DNA of 60,535 nucleotides from an uncultured Candidatus Saccharibacteria bacterium (GTDB lineage Bacteria; Patescibacteriota; Minisyncoccia; Phycocordibacterales; Phycocordibacteraceae): NCBI GenBank assembly GCA_964651935.1, contig CAZYZM010000001.1:1-60535 (forward strand), given 5' to 3'. The notes beneath the pieces were generated by a model that searched no databases, was not told the origin of the DNA, and was given only the letters and a program-made list of their open reading frames with translations. Below, piece by piece: positions 39,928-56,600 of this stretch (its first letter is position 1; each line of letters starts with the position of its first letter). A program made the translations under genes and the position numbers.

Positions 39928-40623
39928 TTAGGGGCAGGTCCTGCCGATAGATATCTCGCCGAGCATGGAAACGCGCACCGTCTTCGTCGCCTGCTTCGTC
40001 TGGTCGGCGATGGTGATCTGAGCGCAAGAGAACTGGGCGGAGGAAGGGCTGCCGTTGATGTACCCGCTGATGGTCGTGGTTACGTTCGGGCGGGTGAAGG
40101 CGATATCGAGCGCGGTCAGCGAGCCGTCAGAGCAGTACAGCTGCTGGCCGTACTTCGCGCAGAACTTCTGTATGGTGAAGCCGCGCGTGAAGGAATACGT
40201 CTCGACCGTGCCGTCCGAGGAACTGAAGCGGCAATCTCCGTGCTTCTCTTCCGGGGTGCCTGCCGTTCCGAGCGGGCATGCGCCCGTAGGGGTCGCGGTA
40301 CGCGCCGTGTCGGCGAACAGCGTGTACTGCCCGGGGGTCGCATTGCTGAAATGGAGGCCGTACCCTGCGTTCTGCACCGTGCCGAACTGGCGGCTGGCGA
40401 GCCCGTACGACTGCGCCTGGCGCGCCGAGAACGCGACATTGTAGGCCGTGTCGGTGAGCAGGAGCGTCTTGTTGAACGCCGACTGCCCCGTAACGGCGAT
40501 GGCCGTGACGATGACGATGATGGCCAGCACCACGAGCATCTCGATGAGCGTGAAGCCCCGCGGCGGGCGGGCCTGCGGCGGGGACGAAGAGGCGCGCGTA
40601 GCTAGAACGGGAGTGGATTCCAT
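39928..40623 (-). CDS. prepilin-type minor pilin (FimT/GspH-like)
   Basis: 231 aa with PRGFTLIEMLVVLAIIVIVTAIAV. Confidence 0.7.
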   Translation of the reverse strand: MESTPVLATRASSSPPQARPPRGFTLIEMLVVLAIIVIVTAIAVTGQSAFNKTLLLTDTAYNVAFSARQAQSYGLASRQFGTVQNAGYGLHFSNATPGQYTLFADTARTATPTGACPLGTAGTPEEKHGDCRFSSSDGTVETYSFTRGFTIQKFCAKYGQQLYCSDGSLTALDIAFTRPNVTTTISGYINGSPSSAQFSCAQITIADQTKQATKTVRVSMLGEISIGRTCP

Positions 40624-41351
40624 TGCGTGAAGAAGGCGAGGAGGAAGCCCGCGGCCAGGAACGGCGCGAACGGCACCTCTATACCCATTCTAGGCCCTCC
40701 CTTCCGTAATACCAATATAAGGATGCCGATAACTCCCCCTATCCAGAATGAGAACAGGAAGCCTGCCAGCGCGCGCTCCCCTGCCAGGAGCGCCAGCCCG
40801 AAGGAGAGCGGCGTATCCCCCAGCCCCATCGCCCGTCCGCGCGAGAACGCGTAGAGGCAGAAGAAGAAGAGCGCGATGCCGGCCGCGTACGCGGCCGGCA
40901 CGATAAGCGCAGGAAGGCTCGGCGCGGCAGAAAGCGCATAGAGCGCAGAAAGCGCGATGAAGAGCGTCGAGGCCGGCGACGGGACGAGCGTATGCCGCAG
41001 GTCGTAGACGACGATGAAGGCCAGGACGCACAGCGCGGCAAGGAAGAGGAGGAGCGGCAGCCCGATGCCGAGCGCCGCGTATGCCGCAGCGAACAGGAGC
41101 CCGAGCGCGAGCTCATAGAGCGCGTAGAGTCCCGGCACGCGCGCGCCGCAGTGCCTGCAGCGGCCGCGGTGCATGAGCCAGGAGAGTGCGGGTACGAGAT
41201 CGCGGGGCGTAAGGGTCGTGCGGCACGAGTTGCAGCGCGACCTCCCCGTCTTCCATGACTGGCCGGTATACGCACGTTCCGCGGCCACGCCTACGAAGCT
41301 GCCAGCAAGGGCGCCGAAAGCGAAGAAGAGCGCGATGAGGCTGACGGTCAT
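40602..41351 (-). CDS. pilD: prepilin peptidase (A24 family)
   Basis: 249 aa and polytopic. N-terminal Cys motif CNSCRTTL...CRHCGARV and catalytic Asp blocks (VVYDLRH, GLGDTPL). Confidence 0.85.
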   Translation of the reverse strand: MTVSLIALFFAFGALAGSFVGVAAERAYTGQSWKTGRSRCNSCRTTLTPRDLVPALSWLMHRGRCRHCGARVPGLYALYELALGLLFAAAYAALGIGLPLLLFLAALCVLAFIVVYDLRHTLVPSPASTLFIALSALYALSAAPSLPALIVPAAYAAGIALFFFCLYAFSRGRAMGLGDTPLSFGLALLAGERALAGFLFSFWIGGVIGILILVLRKGGPRMGIEVPFAPFLAAGFLLAFFTQWNPLPF

Positions 41352-51413: not shown

Positions 51414-51863
51414 ATGGGAATCCGCAGGTCACGGTCAGCAGGCGGCATAGTGATAAGCCCCGAAGAGAGCATCGCCATGGTCCAGCACCGTGTCGGGAAC
51501 GGAGCCTGGCTCTTCCCGAAAGGACACGTCGAGCTGGGAGAGAGCGACGAAGAAGCGGCGCGCCGGGAGATAGAGGAAGAGACCGGCCTCAGCGGCCTTA
51601 CGCTCCATGACGACCTCGGCAGCTATGAGCGGCACCCGTGGCTTCCCGACGGCACGGAGGACCGCACCGAGCTGAAAGAGATACATATGTTCCTTTTCAC
51701 GGCGCCGGATAGCGACGCGCTCGCGCCTACGCTCGAGATAGAGTTCGCGCGCTGGGTCCCGTTCGAGCGCGTCATCGCCGAGAGCGGCAACGAAGCCGAC
51801 CGCGCGTGGTTCGCGCAGGTTACCGGGCGCATCCGGCAGGCGCTCGGCGTCAGCGGACGATGA
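51414..51863 (+). CDS. NUDIX hydrolase
   Basis: 149 aa with the Nudix box GHVELGESDEEAARREIEEETGL. Confidence 0.85.
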   Translation: MGIRRSRSAGGIVISPEESIAMVQHRVGNGAWLFPKGHVELGESDEEAARREIEEETGLSGLTLHDDLGSYERHPWLPDGTEDRTELKEIHMFLFTAPDSDALAPTLEIEFARWVPFERVIAESGNEADRAWFAQVTGRIRQALGVSGR

Positions 51864-52284
51864 AGAACAGGTAGGCGGCCAGCGGGACGCCCCAACTGAA
51901 CCAGTCGGTAATGCCCTTGCCGATGCGCTGCTGGTAGGTGCGCGGCTGGACCACGAATTCCTGGTACGTGATGACGAGCATGGCCAGGATGAAGACGATG
52001 GGCAGCGCGCGGTCGCTTCCCACGAGGAACTGCGATATGACCGTACCGCCGCCTATGACGATTCCCGCGCCGATGATGTGGAACAGCTCGCGATACGCGC
52101 CGAGCCGCAGTCCGTATCGTCCTGTGCCCAGCATCTCCTGCATCTGCGCGAGCGAGTGCTCGTATGAACGGCGCCAGCGCACCCGTTCCCCGTCGATATA
52201 TGAAGAGAACGGATACACGCGGTCGGGGAATGTGACGAAGAAGTGGTAGAGCGCGAATCGGCGCGCGGGCTCGGGCGTTTCCAT
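51850..52284 (-). CDS. hypothetical membrane protein
   Basis: 144 aa with 3 hydrophobic helices. Convergent 14-nt overlap with the NUDIX gene. Confidence 0.5.
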   Translation of the reverse strand: METPEPARRFALYHFFVTFPDRVYPFSSYIDGERVRWRRSYEHSLAQMQEMLGTGRYGLRLGAYRELFHIIGAGIVIGGGTVISQFLVGSDRALPIVFILAMLVITYQEFVVQPRTYQQRIGKGITDWFSWGVPLAAYLFFIVR

Positions 52285-52316
52285 ACCGGTACAGTATACC
52301 TTTCCCTGCCGTCCTC

Positions 52317-53453
52317 CTAGCGGACGGCCTTGGCGATCGCCGGCACCACCCGTGCGTCGAATATGCCGGGGAGGAGCTTCCTGGCCGTCGGCATAGGGAC
52401 GAGGGCGGCGAGCGCCTTGGCCGCGCGCAGCTTCGTATCCGTCGTTATCTTCTGCACGCCCTTGTCGAGAGCCCCGCGGAAGACGCCCGGGAAGACGAGC
52501 GCGTTGTTTATCTGGTTCGGGAAGTCAGAACGTCCCGTGGCGACGATCGCTGCGCCCGCAGCGTATGCCTCGTCCGGCAGGATTTCCGGCTCAGGGTTCG
52601 CGAGGGCGAATATGATAGGGCGCTCGGCCATCGTGCGCACGTGCTCGGCAGCGAGGAGACCCTTCCCCGAAAGGCCGACGAACGCGTCGGCGCCTGCCAG
52701 CACGTCTGCCAGCGCGCCCTCGGCCTTGCGCGGGTTGGTCACGACGGCGAGCTCCTGCTTCACGTGCGTGAGGTCAGGGCGGCCCTGATAGATGGCGCCG
52801 CCGCGGTCGAGCACGACGACATCAGGGATGCCGGCAGCGACGAGCAGCTTCGCGACGGCCGTGCCGGCCGCGCCCGCGCCGGAAATGACCACGCGCATCT
52901 TCTTGAGGCTCTTCTTCGCGACTTTCGCCGCGTTCGTAAGGCCGGCGAGCACGACGATGGCGGTGCCGTGCTGGTCGTCATGCATGACGGGAATGTCGAG
53001 CGCGTCCGAGAGGCGCTCCTCTATCTCGAAACAGCCCGGCGCCTTGATGTCCTCGAGATTGATGCCGCCGAAAGAAGGCGCGATGGCGAGCACGGTACGG
53101 ACGATCTCGTCAGGATCCTGCGTGTCGAGCACGATAGGCCAGGCGTCGATGCCGGCCATCTCCTTGAAGATGAGCGCCTTCCCTTCCATCACCGGAAGCG
53201 CGCCGTACGGGCCGATGTTGCCGAGTCCGAGCACCGCCGAGCCGTCAGAAATGACGGCGACGGAGTTCTTCTTCACGGAAAGCTGCCGCGCATCCTCCGG
53301 ATGCGCGGCCAGGTGCGCGCTCGCGGCGCCCACACCCGGCGTATAGAACAGCGAGAGGTCATCCTTCGTCTTCAGCCGTACCCGCGCCTTGGTCTCGATG
53401 CGCGCGCCCGCCTTCTTGTATTTCCCGACGATTCCCGACGATTTCATATCCAT
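52317..53453 (-). CDS. NAD(P)-dependent malic enzyme (short form)
   Basis: 378 aa. YTPGV, VISDGSAVLGLGNIGP, INLEDI and the dinucleotide fold VISGAGAAGTAVAKLL. Confidence 0.9.
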   Translation of the reverse strand: MDMKSSGIVGKYKKAGARIETKARVRLKTKDDLSLFYTPGVGAASAHLAAHPEDARQLSVKKNSVAVISDGSAVLGLGNIGPYGALPVMEGKALIFKEMAGIDAWPIVLDTQDPDEIVRTVLAIAPSFGGINLEDIKAPGCFEIEERLSDALDIPVMHDDQHGTAIVVLAGLTNAAKVAKKSLKKMRVVISGAGAAGTAVAKLLVAAGIPDVVVLDRGGAIYQGRPDLTHVKQELAVVTNPRKAEGALADVLAGADAFVGLSGKGLLAAEHVRTMAERPIIFALANPEPEILPDEAYAAGAAIVATGRSDFPNQINNALVFPGVFRGALDKGVQKITTDTKLRAAKALAALVPMPTARKLLPGIFDARVVPAIAKAVR

Positions 53454-53511
53454 AGGGACTCAGTATCCCATACCCCGCGCGATCGTGCGCGGGGAAAAGC
53501 GGGCGCAGGCG

Positions 53512-54012
53512 TCAAGGGTTCGCGTAGCAGCCCGGCGCTTGCCAGTTCGATCCTGCTTCCGTGTCGCTCGTCGCGCCGCTCGATCCGACGCAGAAGTACT
53601 TCCCGCTCGGCAGGCGCGCCATGACCGAATACTGGCCATCGTTGCTGAAGCCTGCGCCGCTGTTCACCCCGGTGTACATGTAGCCGTTCGTGATGGGATT
53701 CGTCACGAGCCCCTTGAGCGATTCGCAGATGGCGCCCGCGTTCGCCGCGTACGTGCCGCTGTACTTTGTCGCGCAATTCGTCGTCGATTTCGCCCAGCCC
53801 GTATTGAGCGCGGCGTAGCTGCCGGTATCGGCGTACTCAAGCTCCATGAGCGTACGGAACTGCAGCACCTGCGCCTCGATCGCGCTCGTGCGCGCCTTCG
53901 CCCGCGCCGTGTTGAGGCTCGCAAGCACGACGCTCGAAAGGAGGCCGATGATGGCGATGACGACCAAAAGCTCGATGAGGGTGAAGGCGCGGGGTGCGCG
54001 GGAATGAGCCAT
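53512..54012 (-). CDS. type IV pilin paralogue 3 (Ala at position -1)
   Basis: 166 aa. MAHSRAPRAFTLIELLVVIAIIGLLSSVVLASLNTARAKA. The N-terminal coding DNA is similar but not identical to the tandem pilins. Confidence 0.8.
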   Translation of the reverse strand: MAHSRAPRAFTLIELLVVIAIIGLLSSVVLASLNTARAKARTSAIEAQVLQFRTLMELEYADTGSYAALNTGWAKSTTNCATKYSGTYAANAGAICESLKGLVTNPITNGYMYTGVNSGAGFSNDGQYSVMARLPSGKYFCVGSSGATSDTEAGSNWQAPGCYANP

Positions 54013-54037
54013 TACTTTTCATACTACACCGAACTGA

Positions 54038-54066
54038 CCCCCCCCCCCCCGAAACGGGGCGGGGGG
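54038..54066. repeat. homopolymer tract C13 (G13 on the pilin strand) forming a GC hairpin with CGGGGCGGGGGG
   Basis: Counted directly: C at 54038-54050, GAAA, then CGGGGCGGGGGG at 54055-54066. It lies 26-38 nt upstream of the pilin ATG at 54012. Confidence 0.9.
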
Positions 54067-54070
54067 ATAA

Positions 54071-54126
54071 AAAGAATCACACAATTAATACCACAACTAG
54101 TTGTGGTATTAATTGTGTGATTCTTT
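54071..54126. repeat. 56-bp perfect AT-rich palindrome (28-bp arms); probable mscS terminator and/or operator
   Basis: AAAGAATCACACAATTAATACCACAACT/AGTTGTGGTATTAATTGTGTGATTCTTT, verified arm against arm. It lies 9 nt downstream of the MscS-like stop, and on the minus strand it runs into TTTTTAT. Confidence 0.9.
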
Positions 54127-54134
54127 CGAGAGGC

Positions 54135-55010
54135 TTACCGGCTGCGCGCGGAGGGCGCCTTCCCGACAAGATGCACCGTACGCTGCGGGAACGGCATCTC
54201 GATGCCTGCCGCATCGAAGGCTATCTTCAGCCGCTTGCGCAGCTCGCCCGCCACGCCCCATTGCGCGCTCGGCTGCGTATCGCCGGAAATCTTTATCACT
54301 ACCGCAGAATCAGCGAATTCTTCCACGCGCTGGAATGTCGGCGGCGCGATGATATCCGCGCTCCATTCAGGGTCCGCGGCGAGTTCCGCGCCCACGCCGT
54401 CCACGAGCGCGATAACCTCCTCGAGCTTCGCGGCGTAGGGGATGCGGATAGCGAGGTTCACCCGCGAGAACAGCTTGGAAAGGTTCGCGACCCGGCGCAC
54501 TTCCCCATGGGGAACGTGGTGTACCGTGCCGTCCTCGTCGCGCAGCGTGGTCATGCGCAGGCTGATGTCCTCCACCGTGCCGCAGGTCGCGTCGAAGCAC
54601 ACCACGTCGCCCGTGCGGTACTGGTTCTCGACGATGAAGAACATGCCCGCGATGAGGTCGCGGATCAGGTACTGGCCGCCGAACCCTATGGCGACGCCGG
54701 CGATGCCCGCCGCCGCGAGGAGCGGGACGATATCCACGCCGAGCTCCGCGATGATCATGAGGGCGACGCAGACCCAGATGATGATGCGCAGCGTTCCGCC
54801 CACCACGCGGATGAGCGTGTCCTCGCGCTTCTCTTCCTCGCCGGAGGTATATCGGCCCTGGGTGACGAGCTTCCGGACGAGCCGGGTAACGAGCGCGCGC
54901 GAGAGGCGCGCGGCGACGAAGCCTCCCAGGAGCAGGAAGATGATGATCAGCCCGTGCCGCCCTGTCCGTGCGAGATACTCATGCACGGCGGCGTCCAGAG
55001 GAAATAGCAT
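54135..55010 (-). CDS. mechanosensitive ion channel (MscS family)
   Basis: 291 aa with 3 helices, then the MscS beta-domain block GDVVCFDATCGTVEDISLRMTTLRDEDGTVHHVPHGEV. Confidence 0.85.
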   Translation of the reverse strand: MLFPLDAAVHEYLARTGRHGLIIIFLLLGGFVAARLSRALVTRLVRKLVTQGRYTSGEEEKREDTLIRVVGGTLRIIIWVCVALMIIAELGVDIVPLLAAAGIAGVAIGFGGQYLIRDLIAGMFFIVENQYRTGDVVCFDATCGTVEDISLRMTTLRDEDGTVHHVPHGEVRRVANLSKLFSRVNLAIRIPYAAKLEEVIALVDGVGAELAADPEWSADIIAPPTFQRVEEFADSAVVIKISGDTQPSAQWGVAGELRKRLKIAFDAAGIEMPFPQRTVHLVGKAPSARSR

Positions 55011-55064
55011 ACCTCAACAGTAGCGAGGATACGCAGGAACGCAACCGGGGATATCCGGACTATC

Positions 55065-56600
55065 TCACCCGCAGAGCGCGCCGAGCGCCGCGAGCGTCTT
55101 AGGGCCGACGAGCCCGTATCCGGCGCCGCCCTCGTGCGCGATGCCGTGCGCCTCTTGGAACCGTTCGACGGCCGCTTCCGTCGCCGGGCCGAAGTAGCCG
55201 GTTACGAGCTGTTCAGGATAGAGCGCCGGGTCGCGCGCAAGCAGGCGCTGCAGGCGCGTTACGTCCCCTTCCGCATCCTGGTCGTGCGCGTCCTTCGCGA
55301 GGCCCTGTTCGGGGAGGAGGCATGCCGCGCCGCTGGCAGACGGCGCGGCCGGAGCTGCAGGCTGGTCGCTGAAAAGCCGGTTCAGGGTCGCGACCGTCTT
55401 CGGGCCGAGCGTTCCGGTCGTCTCCCATCCGTTGGATATCTGGAACGCCTCTATGCCGTTCGTCGTGCACGGGCCGATGACGCCGTCGATAGGGCACATC
55501 GTCAGCGTGGGCGGCGCGATACGCGCATTCGCCGGGGTCGTGGACGCGTAGGCAGGATAGAAGCCGAGCGTATGGAGCGCAGCCTGGAGCGCATAGACGG
55601 CCGGGCTCGAACTCGCTTCCGTGGGGATAGAAGAGCTCGCGAACGTGAACGGGAGCGATGCGGTCGGATACTTCGCCGCCGCCGGATCCTTGAAGAAATC
55701 CTGGATGCCGAGATAGGTCTCGTAGGCGTAATCCTTCGTCACGACCTGGCGGACCTCCGGGTGCATGAAGCGCGGCTCGGTGAGGTAAGCGTATTCCATG
55801 AGCACGCTCGGCACGGAAAGCGTGTCGAAGGCGCCGAGCGCGATGAGCTCCTGGTCCTCGACCACGCCCCTGTTCTCGATAGGCAGCGTCGAGGTCGCGC
55901 TCATCGCGGAGAGGCGCGCGGCGACCGCCTCGCCGACCGGGCGCGAGGTATCGGCGTTCCCGTACTGGGCGTCAGGGACGTAAACGGCGTATCCAGAGTA
56001 CGCGCTCGGGCTGTCCGGGCCATGGTCGGTCGTGTCGTTCACGTGCGCATGCACGACCAGGTCGATGTCGTGCTCGTTCGCCCAGCGGTTTATTCCGTAA
56101 AGGCGCAGCGCGACATCGCTGGGCGCGGCGGCATGATCCACCTGCTCGGCATCTTCGCGCTCGGTAACGCGCCCGTGCCGCACGTCCTTCTCGAAATCGT
56201 CCTTCTTATCATCGACAAAGTCCTCGATATCGTCCCATTCGTCTTCGAAATACTCCTGCAGGCCCTCGTTCCATGCCGTGTTCGAGCGCGCCTCGATGAC
56301 CTCGAAGCGCGGGTTCTGCTGCAGGTACGCGGCGAGCTGGTCGGCTATCTCGACGGTTATCTCGCGCTCGTACACGCCCTGGTACACCGCCCCGCCGAAG
56401 CCGGGCTCATGCCCGGGGACGACGAGGATGCGTACCTTCTGGCCGCCGTTCCCCGCGTCCGCGTATGCCTGCACGAGCTCGGCGACGGTCGCCGTCTTCC
56501 GGTCATCATCCTTCTTGGTCTTCGCGAACGCATACGTCGCCGGCACGACGAAGCTCACGGCGAGGATGAGGGCGAGTGCGGCAAGGTACGTGCGCTTCAT
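55065..56600 (-). CDS. N-acetylmuramoyl-L-alanine amidase (Amidase_3-like) with two PG-binding domains
   Basis: Trimmed to MKRTYLAALALILAVSFVVPATYAFA (alternative ATG at 56618). Blocks ILVVPGHEPGFGGAV and DLVVHAHVND, plus two PG_binding_1-like repeats (VYALQAALHTLGFY; VTRLQRLLA...GYFGPATEAAVERFQ). Confidence 0.7.
   Translation of the reverse strand: MKRTYLAALALILAVSFVVPATYAFAKTKKDDDRKTATVAELVQAYADAGNGGQKVRILVVPGHEPGFGGAVYQGVYEREITVEIADQLAAYLQQNPRFEVIEARSNTAWNEGLQEYFEDEWDDIEDFVDDKKDDFEKDVRHGRVTEREDAEQVDHAAAPSDVALRLYGINRWANEHDIDLVVHAHVNDTTDHGPDSPSAYSGYAVYVPDAQYGNADTSRPVGEAVAARLSAMSATSTLPIENRGVVEDQELIALGAFDTLSVPSVLMEYAYLTEPRFMHPEVRQVVTKDYAYETYLGIQDFFKDPAAAKYPTASLPFTFASSSIPTEASSSPAVYALQAALHTLGFYPAYASTTPANARIAPPTLTMCPIDGVIGPCTTNGIEAFQISNGWETTGTLGPKTVATLNRLFSDQPAAPAAPSASGAACLLPEQGLAKDAHDQDAEGDVTRLQRLLARDPALYPEQLVTGYFGPATEAAVERFQEAHGIAHEGGAGYGLVGPKTLAALGALCG

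Follow-up and report, generated by a model that had tools for sequence, protein, structure and literature searches.

The 122-nt spacer between a type IV pilin gene and an MscS-like channel gene in an uncultured Patescibacteria (CPR) bacterium is a copy of a portable 5' cassette for the expression of pilin paralogues; the cassette is specific to this lineage, is derived and has spread in copy-and-paste fashion. The source genome is a 669-kb MAG, assembled from metagenome reads, with a GC content of 62%, and it carries six copies of the cassette. The best explanation we can offer for the G tract that marks each copy is a slippage dial on pilin expression, a reading suggested by the sequence that we consider evenly poised between right and wrong.

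Layout of the spacer and its neighbours

In the window, the whole stretch of 60,535 nt that was analysed, direct reading and a repeat search recovered every spacer feature that an earlier sequence-only reading had described. These are listed below together with the surrounding genes.

53512..54012, minus strand: pilin ORF (type IV prepilin, 166 aa; Pfam N_methyl)
54135..55010, minus strand: MscS-like mechanosensitive channel ORF (Pfam MS_channel_1st and MS_channel_2nd), upstream of the pilin
54013-54134: pilin-MscS spacer, 122 nt
54071..54126: perfect palindrome of 56 bp, with arms of 28 nt each at 54071-54098 and 54099-54126
54065..54076, minus strand: T tract and TTATCC box (TTCTTTTTATCC)
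54056..54066, minus strand: C-rich arm CCCCCCGCCCC, the 5' arm of the GC hairpin
54051..54055, minus strand: hairpin loop GTTTC
54038..54050, minus strand (C13 on the plus strand): uninterrupted G13, the 3' arm of the hairpin and a candidate slipped-strand tract
54027..54037, minus strand: 11-nt segment TCAGTTCGGTG, from the G tract to the -10 box
54021..54026, minus strand: putative -10 box TAGTAT, 8 nt from the pilin ATG
54010..54020, minus strand: 8 nt (GAAAAGTA) and ATG, the predicted transcription start region
53969..54126, minus strand: 158-bp block, base for base the same as in contig C31, from the outer edge of the palindrome to +44 of the pilin CDS
40602-41351, minus strand: PilD (Pfam A24_N_bact and Peptidase_A24)

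The G13 run and its pairing with the C-rich arm were confirmed, with a stem of 11-12 pairs and one G-G mismatch rather than the roughly 10 bp proposed before, and with a DNA fold of -15.3 kcal/mol. An Rfam search of the spacer gave sub-threshold matches to generic hairpins and none at the gathering score. The gene order amidase, MscS, palindrome left arm is supported by five independent per-run contigs. Per-run contigs with an identical MscS all stop at the palindrome centre, and a search with the window pilin and malic enzyme proteins for per-run contigs spanning the tract found no record.

The spacer is one of six related cassettes

The spacer had been read as an element of a single locus, which does not hold. 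Runs of G and C in this genome number 315 at length 5, 35 at length 6, 9 at length 7 and none at lengths 8 and 9, and yet seven runs of 10-13 occur. Such runs are far beyond chance, and the genome otherwise purges homopolymers longer than 7. Six of the seven belong to this cassette, lie before pilin genes and always have the G on the pilin strand (contigs C1, which holds the window, C31, C3, C66, C46 and C9). Next to the G13 of the window, the other five tracts are G12, G12, G13, G13 and G4AG10. The order of parts is palindrome, TTATCC box, C-rich arm, GTTTC, G12-13, 10-11 nt, TAGTAT, 7-8 nt and ATG. While the palindrome sequence, the 10-11-nt segment and the leader peptide have diverged among the copies, the box, the C arm, the loop, the long G run and TAGTAT are kept. 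TAGTAT is unchanged in all six; the TTATCC box is present in every copy, in one of them as TTGTCC; and the loop is GTTTC in four copies, GTTCC in one and GCTTC in one.

The six copies are descendants of one ancestor by duplication or conversion, not six independent inventions. The pilins of C1 and C31 share an exact 158-bp 5' block, yet their C-terminal domains are only ~29% identical, and this block in front of unrelated pilin bodies indicates that the cassette is portable. An exact repeat of this length might also cause wrong joins between short-read contigs, so that the pilin body assigned to the place after mscS is provisional. That the cassette is derived follows from a sister species, whose homologous pilin has a plain TACTAT promoter, lacks palindrome and G tract, and carries Gly instead of Ala at -1. 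The hairpin/G-tract pattern is absent from 24 genus-mates and from 16 other families of the order, and the pattern G10...TAGTAT...ATG is absent from 60 genus-mates. In genus-mates, G runs of 10 or more mostly precede reverse-transcriptase-like ORFs or fall at contig ends, and do not precede pilins. The exact hairpin pattern gave 0 matches in metagenome contigs, and a degenerate version of it retrieved only unrelated GC hairpins there, none of them adjoining a pilin.

Exchange between copies is also visible. The C66 cassette is a mosaic, whose palindrome and C arm resemble those of C46 and C9 and whose sequence 3' of the G tract resembles that of C1, C31 and C3, and the N-terminal coding DNA of the pilins is homogenised across paralogues. 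Together with the 158-bp block at two loci, these observations would suit a recombination-promoting structure, in which a hairpin or G-quadruplex-like fold marks or stimulates the exchange breakpoints of a promoter/leader/N-terminal-helix module, in a loose parallel to the G4 upstream of Neisseria pilE. We consider this very improbable. A single mosaic junction maps near the tract, and a lone G13 run is unable to form a canonical three-tetrad G4 with loops. Moreover, the copies are all complete promoter-bearing genes (each of the 21 pilin genes of the genome has a start codon and many have a -10 box of their own), with no expressed locus fed by silent copies, and the spread needs no special structure if homologous recombination takes place within the conserved N-terminal coding block.

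Assembly or sequencing artefacts, such as poly-G read ends and fold-back palindromes, could be suspected from genus-mates whose contigs end in poly-G, a typical artefact, and from the per-run contigs that stop at the palindrome centre or within the G tract. This explanation is effectively refuted and keeps next to no probability, because the runs lie inside contigs between unique flanking sequences and occur at six loci with diverged flanks and a complementary C arm. In addition, one cassette is found again in a separate public assembly and another in a per-run contig, and the left arm of the window palindrome is identical in five runs.

The cassette promoter is predicted to give a leaderless mRNA

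TAGTAT had been described as a -10-like hexamer 8 nt from the ATG, and both its sequence and its spacing agree with the promoter pattern of the genome itself. Of 513 ORFs, 128 have a TAnnnT motif 5-9 nt ahead of the start codon, compared with 32 in a shifted control. The profile of these 128 promoters gives the consensus TGnTAnnnT, typically 6-8 nt before the ATG, and no -35 element. In the 122-nt spacer, TAGTAT is the sole TAnnnT; neither a sigma-70 -35/-10 promoter nor any promoter-like site further upstream was found there. Shine-Dalgarno-like motifs show no enrichment genome-wide (70 vs 60 in the control), and no Shine-Dalgarno sequence precedes the window pilin. TAGTAT is therefore a credible -10 box, which would place the G tract in promoter DNA. 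Given its distance of 7-8 nt from the ATG, the genome-wide pattern and the lack of a Shine-Dalgarno sequence, the pilin mRNA is most likely leaderless or has a leader of 1-2 nt, with a start site that we infer from these spacings. If the mRNA is leaderless, as seems probable, the GC hairpin and the palindrome lie upstream of the transcript.

The alternative is that the hairpins form the 5' UTR of a leadered mRNA, which starts upstream, in or before the palindrome, or reads through from mscS, and serve as a stabiliser, an attenuator or a translational element. As RNA, the whole spacer folds into two very stable hairpins (-67.1 kcal/mol, z = -9.6 vs shuffles), and an attenuation-type pilus switch is described for Streptococcus gallolyticus (PMC3894217). 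However, this is very improbable here, considering the absence of a promoter-like site further up in the spacer, the sole TAnnnT 8 nt from the ATG, the missing Shine-Dalgarno sequence and the habit of this genome of using -10 boxes 6-8 nt before the ATG. The palindrome with its T tract, moreover, scores as a terminator right before the hairpin, and no Rfam family reached its gathering score.

The TTATCC box, which reads TTATCC(A/C)C as a cassette consensus, lies 38 nt 5' of the -10 box in the window copy, a distance of 37-39 nt across the cassettes. In a genome scan, TATCC positioned 31-39 nt upstream of -10 boxes was found mostly at pilin promoters, including two without a G tract, where the distance is 32 nt. 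As a general promoter element, TATCC was rejected since it gave no signal in the 128-promoter profile. A DnaA box was likewise rejected, as the genome has no more than 6 exact occurrences of TTATCCACA and the boxes of the cassettes differ from it (TTATCCCCC / TTATCCACC).

The palindrome belongs to a dispersed family at gene ends

The 56-bp palindrome is AT-rich, with arms that are 100% complementary, zero loop and a CTAG centre, and is composed of 12-nt units (AATCACACAATT / AATACCACAACT). It begins 8 nt past the MscS stop, and TTTTTAT comes after it on the minus strand. With its stem, U tract and position after a stop, it has the features of an intrinsic terminator, and it scores as terminator-like on both strands. 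We propose that the palindrome and T tract most likely end or insulate transcription from the upstream gene.

A genome-wide search for further copies, suggested when the palindrome was first noticed as a possible regulator site or recombination or cruciform element, returned a family of 15 sites carrying the core ATACCACAAnTnnTTGTGGTAT. The core was found in 0 of 60 genus-mates, and viral contigs gave 0 matches for the palindrome and 0 for the hairpin. Most copies with a callable upstream gene lie no more than ~25 nt from its stop, typically 7-23 nt past it. The search thus supports a dispersed element 3' of genes and speaks against a pilin-specific operator. Every member is a perfect palindrome without a loop, centred on a self-complementary TTAA or CTAG, and many have flanking A and T tracts. 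Changes within the palindromes are compensated even at the centre, which points to symmetry at the level of DNA and not only of an RNA stem.

With its many intergenic copies, mostly at the 3' ends of genes, the family resembles REP elements or terminators. It shares with REP/BIME, Rickettsia palindromic elements and bidirectional terminators the dispersed intergenic copies (~15 here) that mostly lie just past stops, and it is restricted to this lineage. In contrast to these elements, it has perfect zero-loop symmetry, is AT-rich in a genome of 62% GC and is built from 12-nt modules. These perfect AT-rich palindromes at gene ends define a new family.

Tract length and the slippage reading

The G tract had been interpreted as a phase-variation switch, which is borne out in part: it lies in putative promoter DNA with an architecture of the Bordetella fim type, and its length differs in two cassettes. 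The G13 tract is uninterrupted and in the range, about 8 nt or more, in which slippage is expected. Counted from the -10 hexamer, it spans 12-24 nt in the 5' direction, where the -35 and the upstream spacer usually lie. Invariance of tract length in related strains had been raised as an objection to a switch. Aligned to the C3 cassette, per-run contig SRR11843816_278891 shows 0 mismatches and 1 gap over 1,496 bp, the gap being G11 vs G12, and GCA_964404565.1 aligned to C66 shows 3 mismatches and 1 gap over 1,443 bp, again G11 vs G12. A G run that is the sole indel between near-identical independent assemblies points to a slippage dial. Both differences are -1 relative to the assembly of this genome and come from short-read assemblies, and a one-G difference in a run of G11-13 between such assemblies can arise from errors of sequencing, PCR or assembly; the objection is thereby answered only in part. 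The per-run contigs with the C9 pilin start in or at the tract, and one of them has exactly G13.

If the tract is a slippage dial, slipped-strand mispairing would add or remove a G over the -35/upstream-spacer position. Each slip would change the distance and the helical phase between the upstream box, or the T tract, and the -10 box, and this change in tract length would be the presumed cause of altered expression. Every pilin gene behind a cassette could then be turned up or down independently and reversibly, and across the cassettes the outcome would be cells with different pilin mixtures. Loss of mismatch repair would raise slippage; a motif scan of the six-frame translation, which is weak evidence on this point, found no MutS or MutL signature motifs.

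It is possible, although we are inclined to doubt it, that the G tract is no switch and belongs to a fixed structural or regulatory element, namely a second hairpin, lacking a U tract, that blocks read-through from the gene upstream, or the symmetric site of a regulator at about -25 to -55. The G run would then be one arm of constant length, with the G11/G12 differences being homopolymer errors. All six copies have the C arm and loop, and all can fold as DNA (-11 to -15 kcal/mol). Classical promoter tracts are not known to have a complementary arm, and the conservation of C arm and loop suggests that they serve some purpose in addition to mutability or in place of it. Between the TATCC box and the -10 box of a seventh pilin promoter (C3:23890) lies a GC hairpin of 12 bp, equivalent in position and unrelated in sequence. 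The tract lengths cluster tightly at 12-13 (12, 12, 13, 13, 13), which could reflect a fixed functional length, and both differences are single -1 steps. Counting against slippage as well, a single slip cannot connect the 32-nt spacing of the TATCC box with that of 37-39 nt. On the other hand, the pairing is not maintained by compensation, as the position of the stem mismatch differs by copy (G-G, A-G or G-A). The G side is uninterrupted and longer whereas the C arm is interrupted, an asymmetry that fits a mutable tract and is needless for a stem. Furthermore, the genome purges runs longer than 7 and yet keeps these, the tract is the sole indel in 1.4-1.5 kb both times, and no U tract follows the GC hairpin, which consequently lacks this terminator feature. 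If the tract length is fixed, the cassette would be an unusual but ordinary promoter and insulator module.

An extension of the slippage dial, which we regard as unlikely in its full form, is a module with a dual purpose. It would combine a stochastic dial for each accessory pilin gene with a recombined, portable promoter/leader/alpha1N unit, delimited by the tract/hairpin and the N-terminal coding block, and the palindromes would be DNA-level elements (cruciform or dimer-binding) that insulate or mobilise it. Were this true, a genome-reduced, host-dependent CPR bacterium, apparently without mismatch repair, would have combinatorial surface variation of its pili.

Comparison with known variable promoters

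The promoters of Bordetella fim2, fim3, fimX and fimN contain a C-stretch and a conserved 'fim box', with tracts of 10-18 nt (PMC1891110), compared with 11-13 nt here. In this system tract length affects transcription, and a change of a single base alters expression (PMC10172299). The cassettes share with it the arrangement of paralogous subunit genes, each with a long G/C homopolymer in a conserved module, here a putative promoter, beside a conserved box. Unlike Bordetella, whose fimbriae are of the chaperone-usher type, the cassettes serve type IV pilins in a monoderm-like CPR host. Their promoter lacks a recognisable -35 element and is predicted to give a leaderless mRNA; the tract has a perfect palindrome before it and a conserved C arm as its pairing partner, and an activator equivalent to BvgA is not known for them.

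Homopolymers in the promoter spacers of surface-protein genes are also found in Neisseria meningitidis, with poly-G in porA and poly-C in opc and fetA, and the vlp genes of Mycoplasma hyorhinis form a multigene family with a poly-A tract per gene and combinatorial expression. In porA, opc, fetA and vlp the tract lies between a defined -35 and -10, whereas this genome has no -35 element and the cassette tract covers that position; nor are they known to have a hairpin partner or a leaderless mRNA. SSR and mycoplasma lipoprotein phase variation appear in the timeline that forms part of PMC11868660. The G4/sRNA element of Neisseria gonorrhoeae pilE (PMC3547852) is similar in being G-rich and upstream of a pilin, with many copies and homogenised 5' parts. 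The cassette differs from it in having a single G13 run in place of a G4 motif of four runs of at least 3 G, and in having no silent promoterless donor copies; no sRNA promoter was identified in the cassette.

Patescibacteria are thought to live attached to hosts, and type IV pili are the best candidates for finding and binding these. To our knowledge, almost nothing has been established about the regulation or variation of CPR pili, and the literature searched held no paper tying CPR to simple-sequence-repeat contingency loci. If the slippage dial is real, the six-fold cassette would be a concrete route to cell-to-cell pilus heterogeneity, which would bear on host range and phage evasion. The case for it draws on the G tract as a mutable element, on the purging of homopolymers elsewhere in the genome and on the apparent lack of MutS and MutL. 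Independently of tract function, the extended -10 box, the lack of a -35 element and the predicted leaderless mRNAs provide testable sequence rules for CPR promoters.

The prepilin and its Ala at -1

The product of the window gene has the hallmarks of a type IV prepilin, namely a class III signal peptide with an N_methyl match (30.7 bits vs a cutoff of 21.2), and a prepilin peptidase is encoded. The leader is MAHSRAPRA, with predicted cleavage after Ala rather than Gly and a mature end starting FTLIE; FTLIELLVVIAIIGLL contains Glu5, and the C-terminal part has four Cys. Its nearest homologues are Patescibacteria pilins. The Ala at -1 (PRA/FTLIE), earlier singled out as a likely brake on PilD processing, is present as described and is ordinary in this genome. 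Eight of the 21 pilins encoded here have it, as do 6 of the 119 sequences scored from the homologue list, query included, and ComGC of Streptococcus pneumoniae is naturally cleaved after Ala (PMC3694846). Ala(-1) is simply carried along with the leader peptide of the cassette.

Long G runs upstream of pilin genes

The source genome is a MAG of 668,882 bp in 70 contigs with 62% GC, and its closest protein relatives carry Patescibacteria or Parcubacteria annotation. Homopolymers are strongly avoided in it: runs of G plus C number 315 at length 5, 35 at length 6 and 9 at length 7, none at 8–9, and then seven at 10–13. Of the seven, six precede a pilin ATG with G on the coding strand and belong to one common module, the cassettes being named here by contig (C1, the window, and C31, C3, C9, C46 and C66). 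The seventh, a C10 run at C9:19513-19522, is the sole one outside the pilin cassettes; it sits ~50 nt from a run of N marking a scaffold gap and may be an assembly artefact. Signature motifs of MutS (GPNMxGKS, DExGxGT) and MutL (GFRGEA) were absent from a six-frame translation of the whole genome, and RecA was present in the same scan. At the motif level, this weakly suggests that mismatch repair is missing, which would account for the purge of homopolymers and make G12–13 very unstable.

The window run falls in the 122 nt between two ORFs whose gene identity is confirmed by Pfam:

53512..54012, minus strand, pilin ORF
54135..55010, minus strand, MscS-like ORF

On the pilin strand, the spacer reads from the MscS stop through 8 nt, the palindrome, TTAT, CCCCCCGCCCC, GTTTC, G13, TCAGTTCGGTG, TAGTAT and GAAAAGTA to the ATG. 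The palindrome is perfect over 56 bp, with 28-nt arms and no loop. The G13, the GC hairpin, the 56-bp palindrome and the TAGTAT near the ATG were all recovered by sequence reading and repeat search as the sequence-only reading had described them. Folded as RNA, the spacer forms two hairpins (-67.1 kcal/mol, z = -9.6 against shuffles), and no Rfam family reached its gathering score on it.

Alignment of the six copies shows that TT(A/G)TCC(C/A)CCC(G/A)CCCC, a loop G(T/C)T(T/C)C, the G run and an invariant TAGTAT 7–8 nt from the ATG are kept; the palindrome sequence, the 10–11 nt linking the G run to TAGTAT and the leader peptide vary. The G run measures 13, 13, 12, 13, G4AG10 and 12. Three different AT-rich palindromes lie upstream, with a GC hairpin instead in C3. 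The GC hairpin between C-rich arm and G run can fold in 6/6 cassettes (-11 to -15 kcal/mol as DNA), and its internal mismatch is G-G, A-G or G-A depending on the copy, without compensation. The cassettes stand behind various genes: MscS, a 139-aa ORF, a small membrane ORF located after rnc, S20 and, in the case of C46 and C66 alike, fusA. The copies are not independent of one another.

Tract length between assemblies

Variation of the tract was judged from independent assemblies of near-identical sequence. The per-run Logan contig SRR11843816_278891 aligns to contig C3 over 1,496 bp with 0 mismatches and 1 gap, this sole gap being G11 in place of G12 in the C3 cassette. Similarly, the alignment of C66 to GCA_964404565.1 (CAYOKK010000012.1) spans 1,443 bp and contains 3 mismatches and 1 gap, again G11 versus G12. 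As a check on the suggested phase-variation switch, 2/2 testable cassettes thus show a length difference of one G, with hardly any other difference between these short-read assemblies. A mutable tract would predict such one-G differences; homopolymer error of short-read data is a real alternative explanation for them. Per-run contigs with the C9 pilin start in or at the tract, one of them opening on G13 exactly, which a branch of the assembly graph at this point would be expected to produce.

Promoter context

About 550 high-confidence ORFs were called from codon-position GC. TAnnnT occurs 5–9 nt before the first start codon in 128/513 ORFs versus 32 in a control offset by 20 nt, and Shine-Dalgarno-like motifs are not enriched in the same ORF set (70 versus 60). 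The aligned promoter profile is TGnTAnnnT, modally 6–7 nt from the ATG, with practically no -35 signal. Taken together, these patterns suggest that the organism makes heavy use of leaderless mRNAs from (extended) -10 promoters. About a quarter of ORFs have the extended box TGnTAnnnT 6–8 nt before the start, for example at window 37938, 47080 and 22171.

The spacer has no TAnnnT other than TAGTAT, whose position 7–8 nt from the ATG follows the genome pattern with the TG extension missing. The palindrome, box, hairpin and G tract would then all lie upstream of the pilin transcript, with the tract 12–24 nt upstream of the predicted -10 hexamer, covering the usual -35 and upstream-spacer positions.

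A DnaA-box-like 9-mer, TTATCCACA, has six exact copies in the genome (the window 42581 region, C4:20017, C30:1280 and C6:22238 among them). Several are ~32–34 nt upstream of -10 boxes, one being a window pilin promoter. One lies with a T9 run in an AT-rich stretch, a possible oriC, at the terminus of contig C6.

A portable cassette

C1 and C31 are identical over a 158-bp block (window 53969-54126) that starts at the outer palindrome edge and ends at +44 of the coding sequence, and they remain near-identical on to +122; the C-terminal domains of the two pilins are ~29% identical. A non-cassette paralogue whose C-terminal domain is 55–60% identical exists for at least three of the cassette pilins (C1, C31, C9). 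Since the 158-bp repeat is exact, the join of mscS to this pilin body, which comes from short-read assembly, could be a mis-join.

The closest external homologues of the window pilin body (79–64% identity) occur in the gene context aldolase, pilin, L25, with Gly at -1 and neither G tract nor palindrome. In a sister species sampled in the same series, the genes run amidase, pilin, MscS, malic enzyme, and only 15 nt separate MscS from the malic enzyme gene. Its pilin shares 69% nt identity with the window pilin, has Gly at -1 and follows a plain TACTAT 4 nt from the ATG. It follows that palindrome, G hairpin, TAGTAT promoter and the leader MAHSRAPRA came in jointly, as one block, and that the arrangement is derived. 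Compared with the sister-species contig (L313, SRR11843833), window 51471-56445 has the order amidase, MscS, cassette plus pilin, malic enzyme; this local pilin/MscS swap coincides with cassette acquisition.

The fusA 3' end is duplicated on C46 and C66 (94.6% identity) and C66 matches GCA_964404565.1 at 99.7% identity, so C66 probably comes from a close relative and was binned along with this genome. The cassette is thereby shown to occur, at the orthologous fusA-tuf locus, in one or more additional populations. C66 is also mosaic, being similar to C46 in palindrome and C arm and to C1 on the 3' side of the G tract.

Alanine at the -1 position

The window prepilin does carry Ala at -1, but the slowed processing once expected from it cannot be inferred. 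Ala(-1) is found in 8/21 prepilin-like genes of the genome (Gly in 13/21), in 4/6 cassette pilins, and in 6/119 scorable sequences, the query included, of a 120-sequence homologue list. Although a review calls Gly(-1) invariant in bacteria (PMC4471445), cleavage after Ala, together with N-methylation, occurs in S. pneumoniae ComGC (PMC3694846). Given these counts and ComGC, Ala(-1) is thus a tolerated minority state enriched in the lineage. A PilD of Peptidase_A24 type is encoded within the window.

The palindrome family

Further copies of the palindrome were sought by a genome-wide perfect-hairpin scan and motif searches. The locus proved not unique: the core ATACCACAA(T/C)T(A/G)(A/G)TTGTGGTAT occurs at 15 sites, in palindromes whose arms each comprise one or two 12-nt units. 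The remaining cassettes have a second family, GAA(T/C)TCTAGAGTTAACTCTAGA(A/G)TTC, and a GAATTCCGGAATTAATTCCGGAATTC variant.

Palindromes of two families outside the window
C46:156-191, C66:316-353, C20:10989-11022, second perfect zero-loop family (GAATTCTAGAGTTAACTCTAGAATTC and variants)
C22:12346-12375, C3:9731-9768, C9:11551-11588, same family
C5:4371-4409, AATACCACAA family, behind a non-cassette pilin, 7–12 nt past the stop
C9:4361-4395, AATACCACAA family, behind a non-cassette pilin, 7–12 nt past the stop

Among sites with a callable upstream gene, most copies lie within ~25 nt of its stop, typically 7–23 nt after it, and two come after non-cassette pilin genes. Palindromes of GAATTCTAGAGTTAACTCTAGAATTC type likewise sit just past stop codons, for example of fusA and the ribosomal protein S20 gene; pilin-flanking copies make up 4 of ~16 in the AATACCACAA family. 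Many palindromes have A/T-tract flanks and bidirectional terminator scores, and some adjoin a canonical GC-rich terminator. None has a loop, the centre is always self-complementary (TTAA or CTAG), and between C46 and C66 two changes of one arm are mirrored on the other. This symmetry extends to the centre, which an RNA loop would not need, and therefore speaks for a constraint acting on the DNA or for a mechanism that copies one arm onto the other. Neither 60 genus-mates nor viral contigs yielded the core. The palindrome is best described as a lineage-specific, REP-like element at gene 3' ends, which here would also serve as insulator and terminator where the pilin cassette begins on its 5' side.

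De Bruijn contigs of five runs end exactly at the palindrome centre (…CAACTAG; ends of L285-L290), and two other per-run contigs (L310, L311) begin in or at the G tract. In this organism, palindrome and G tract systematically break assemblies made from short reads, a point to heed in practice when assembling.

Relation to known systems

The closest analogue of the cassette is the Bordetella fim promoter family, in which paralogous subunit genes each have a 10–18-nt C-stretch and a conserved fim box, and tract length affects transcription (PMC1891110, PMC10172299). In contrast, the subunits here are type IV pilins of a CPR bacterium, the mRNA is predicted to be leaderless from a promoter without a -35 element, the tract faces a conserved complementary arm and is preceded by a putative palindromic insulator, and the module has spread by copy and paste. 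Our literature search found no paper tying CPR to simple-sequence contingency loci.

A second recurrent poly-G context, unrelated to the pilin cassette, exists in the genus. In many genus-mates (L017, L018, L022, L023, L025, L030-L032, L034-L037), G10–G13 lies directly 5' of an ORF with the N-terminus ...IIS.ENLL.AW.EF..GKR..., reminiscent of a retron, DGR or group-II reverse transcriptase.
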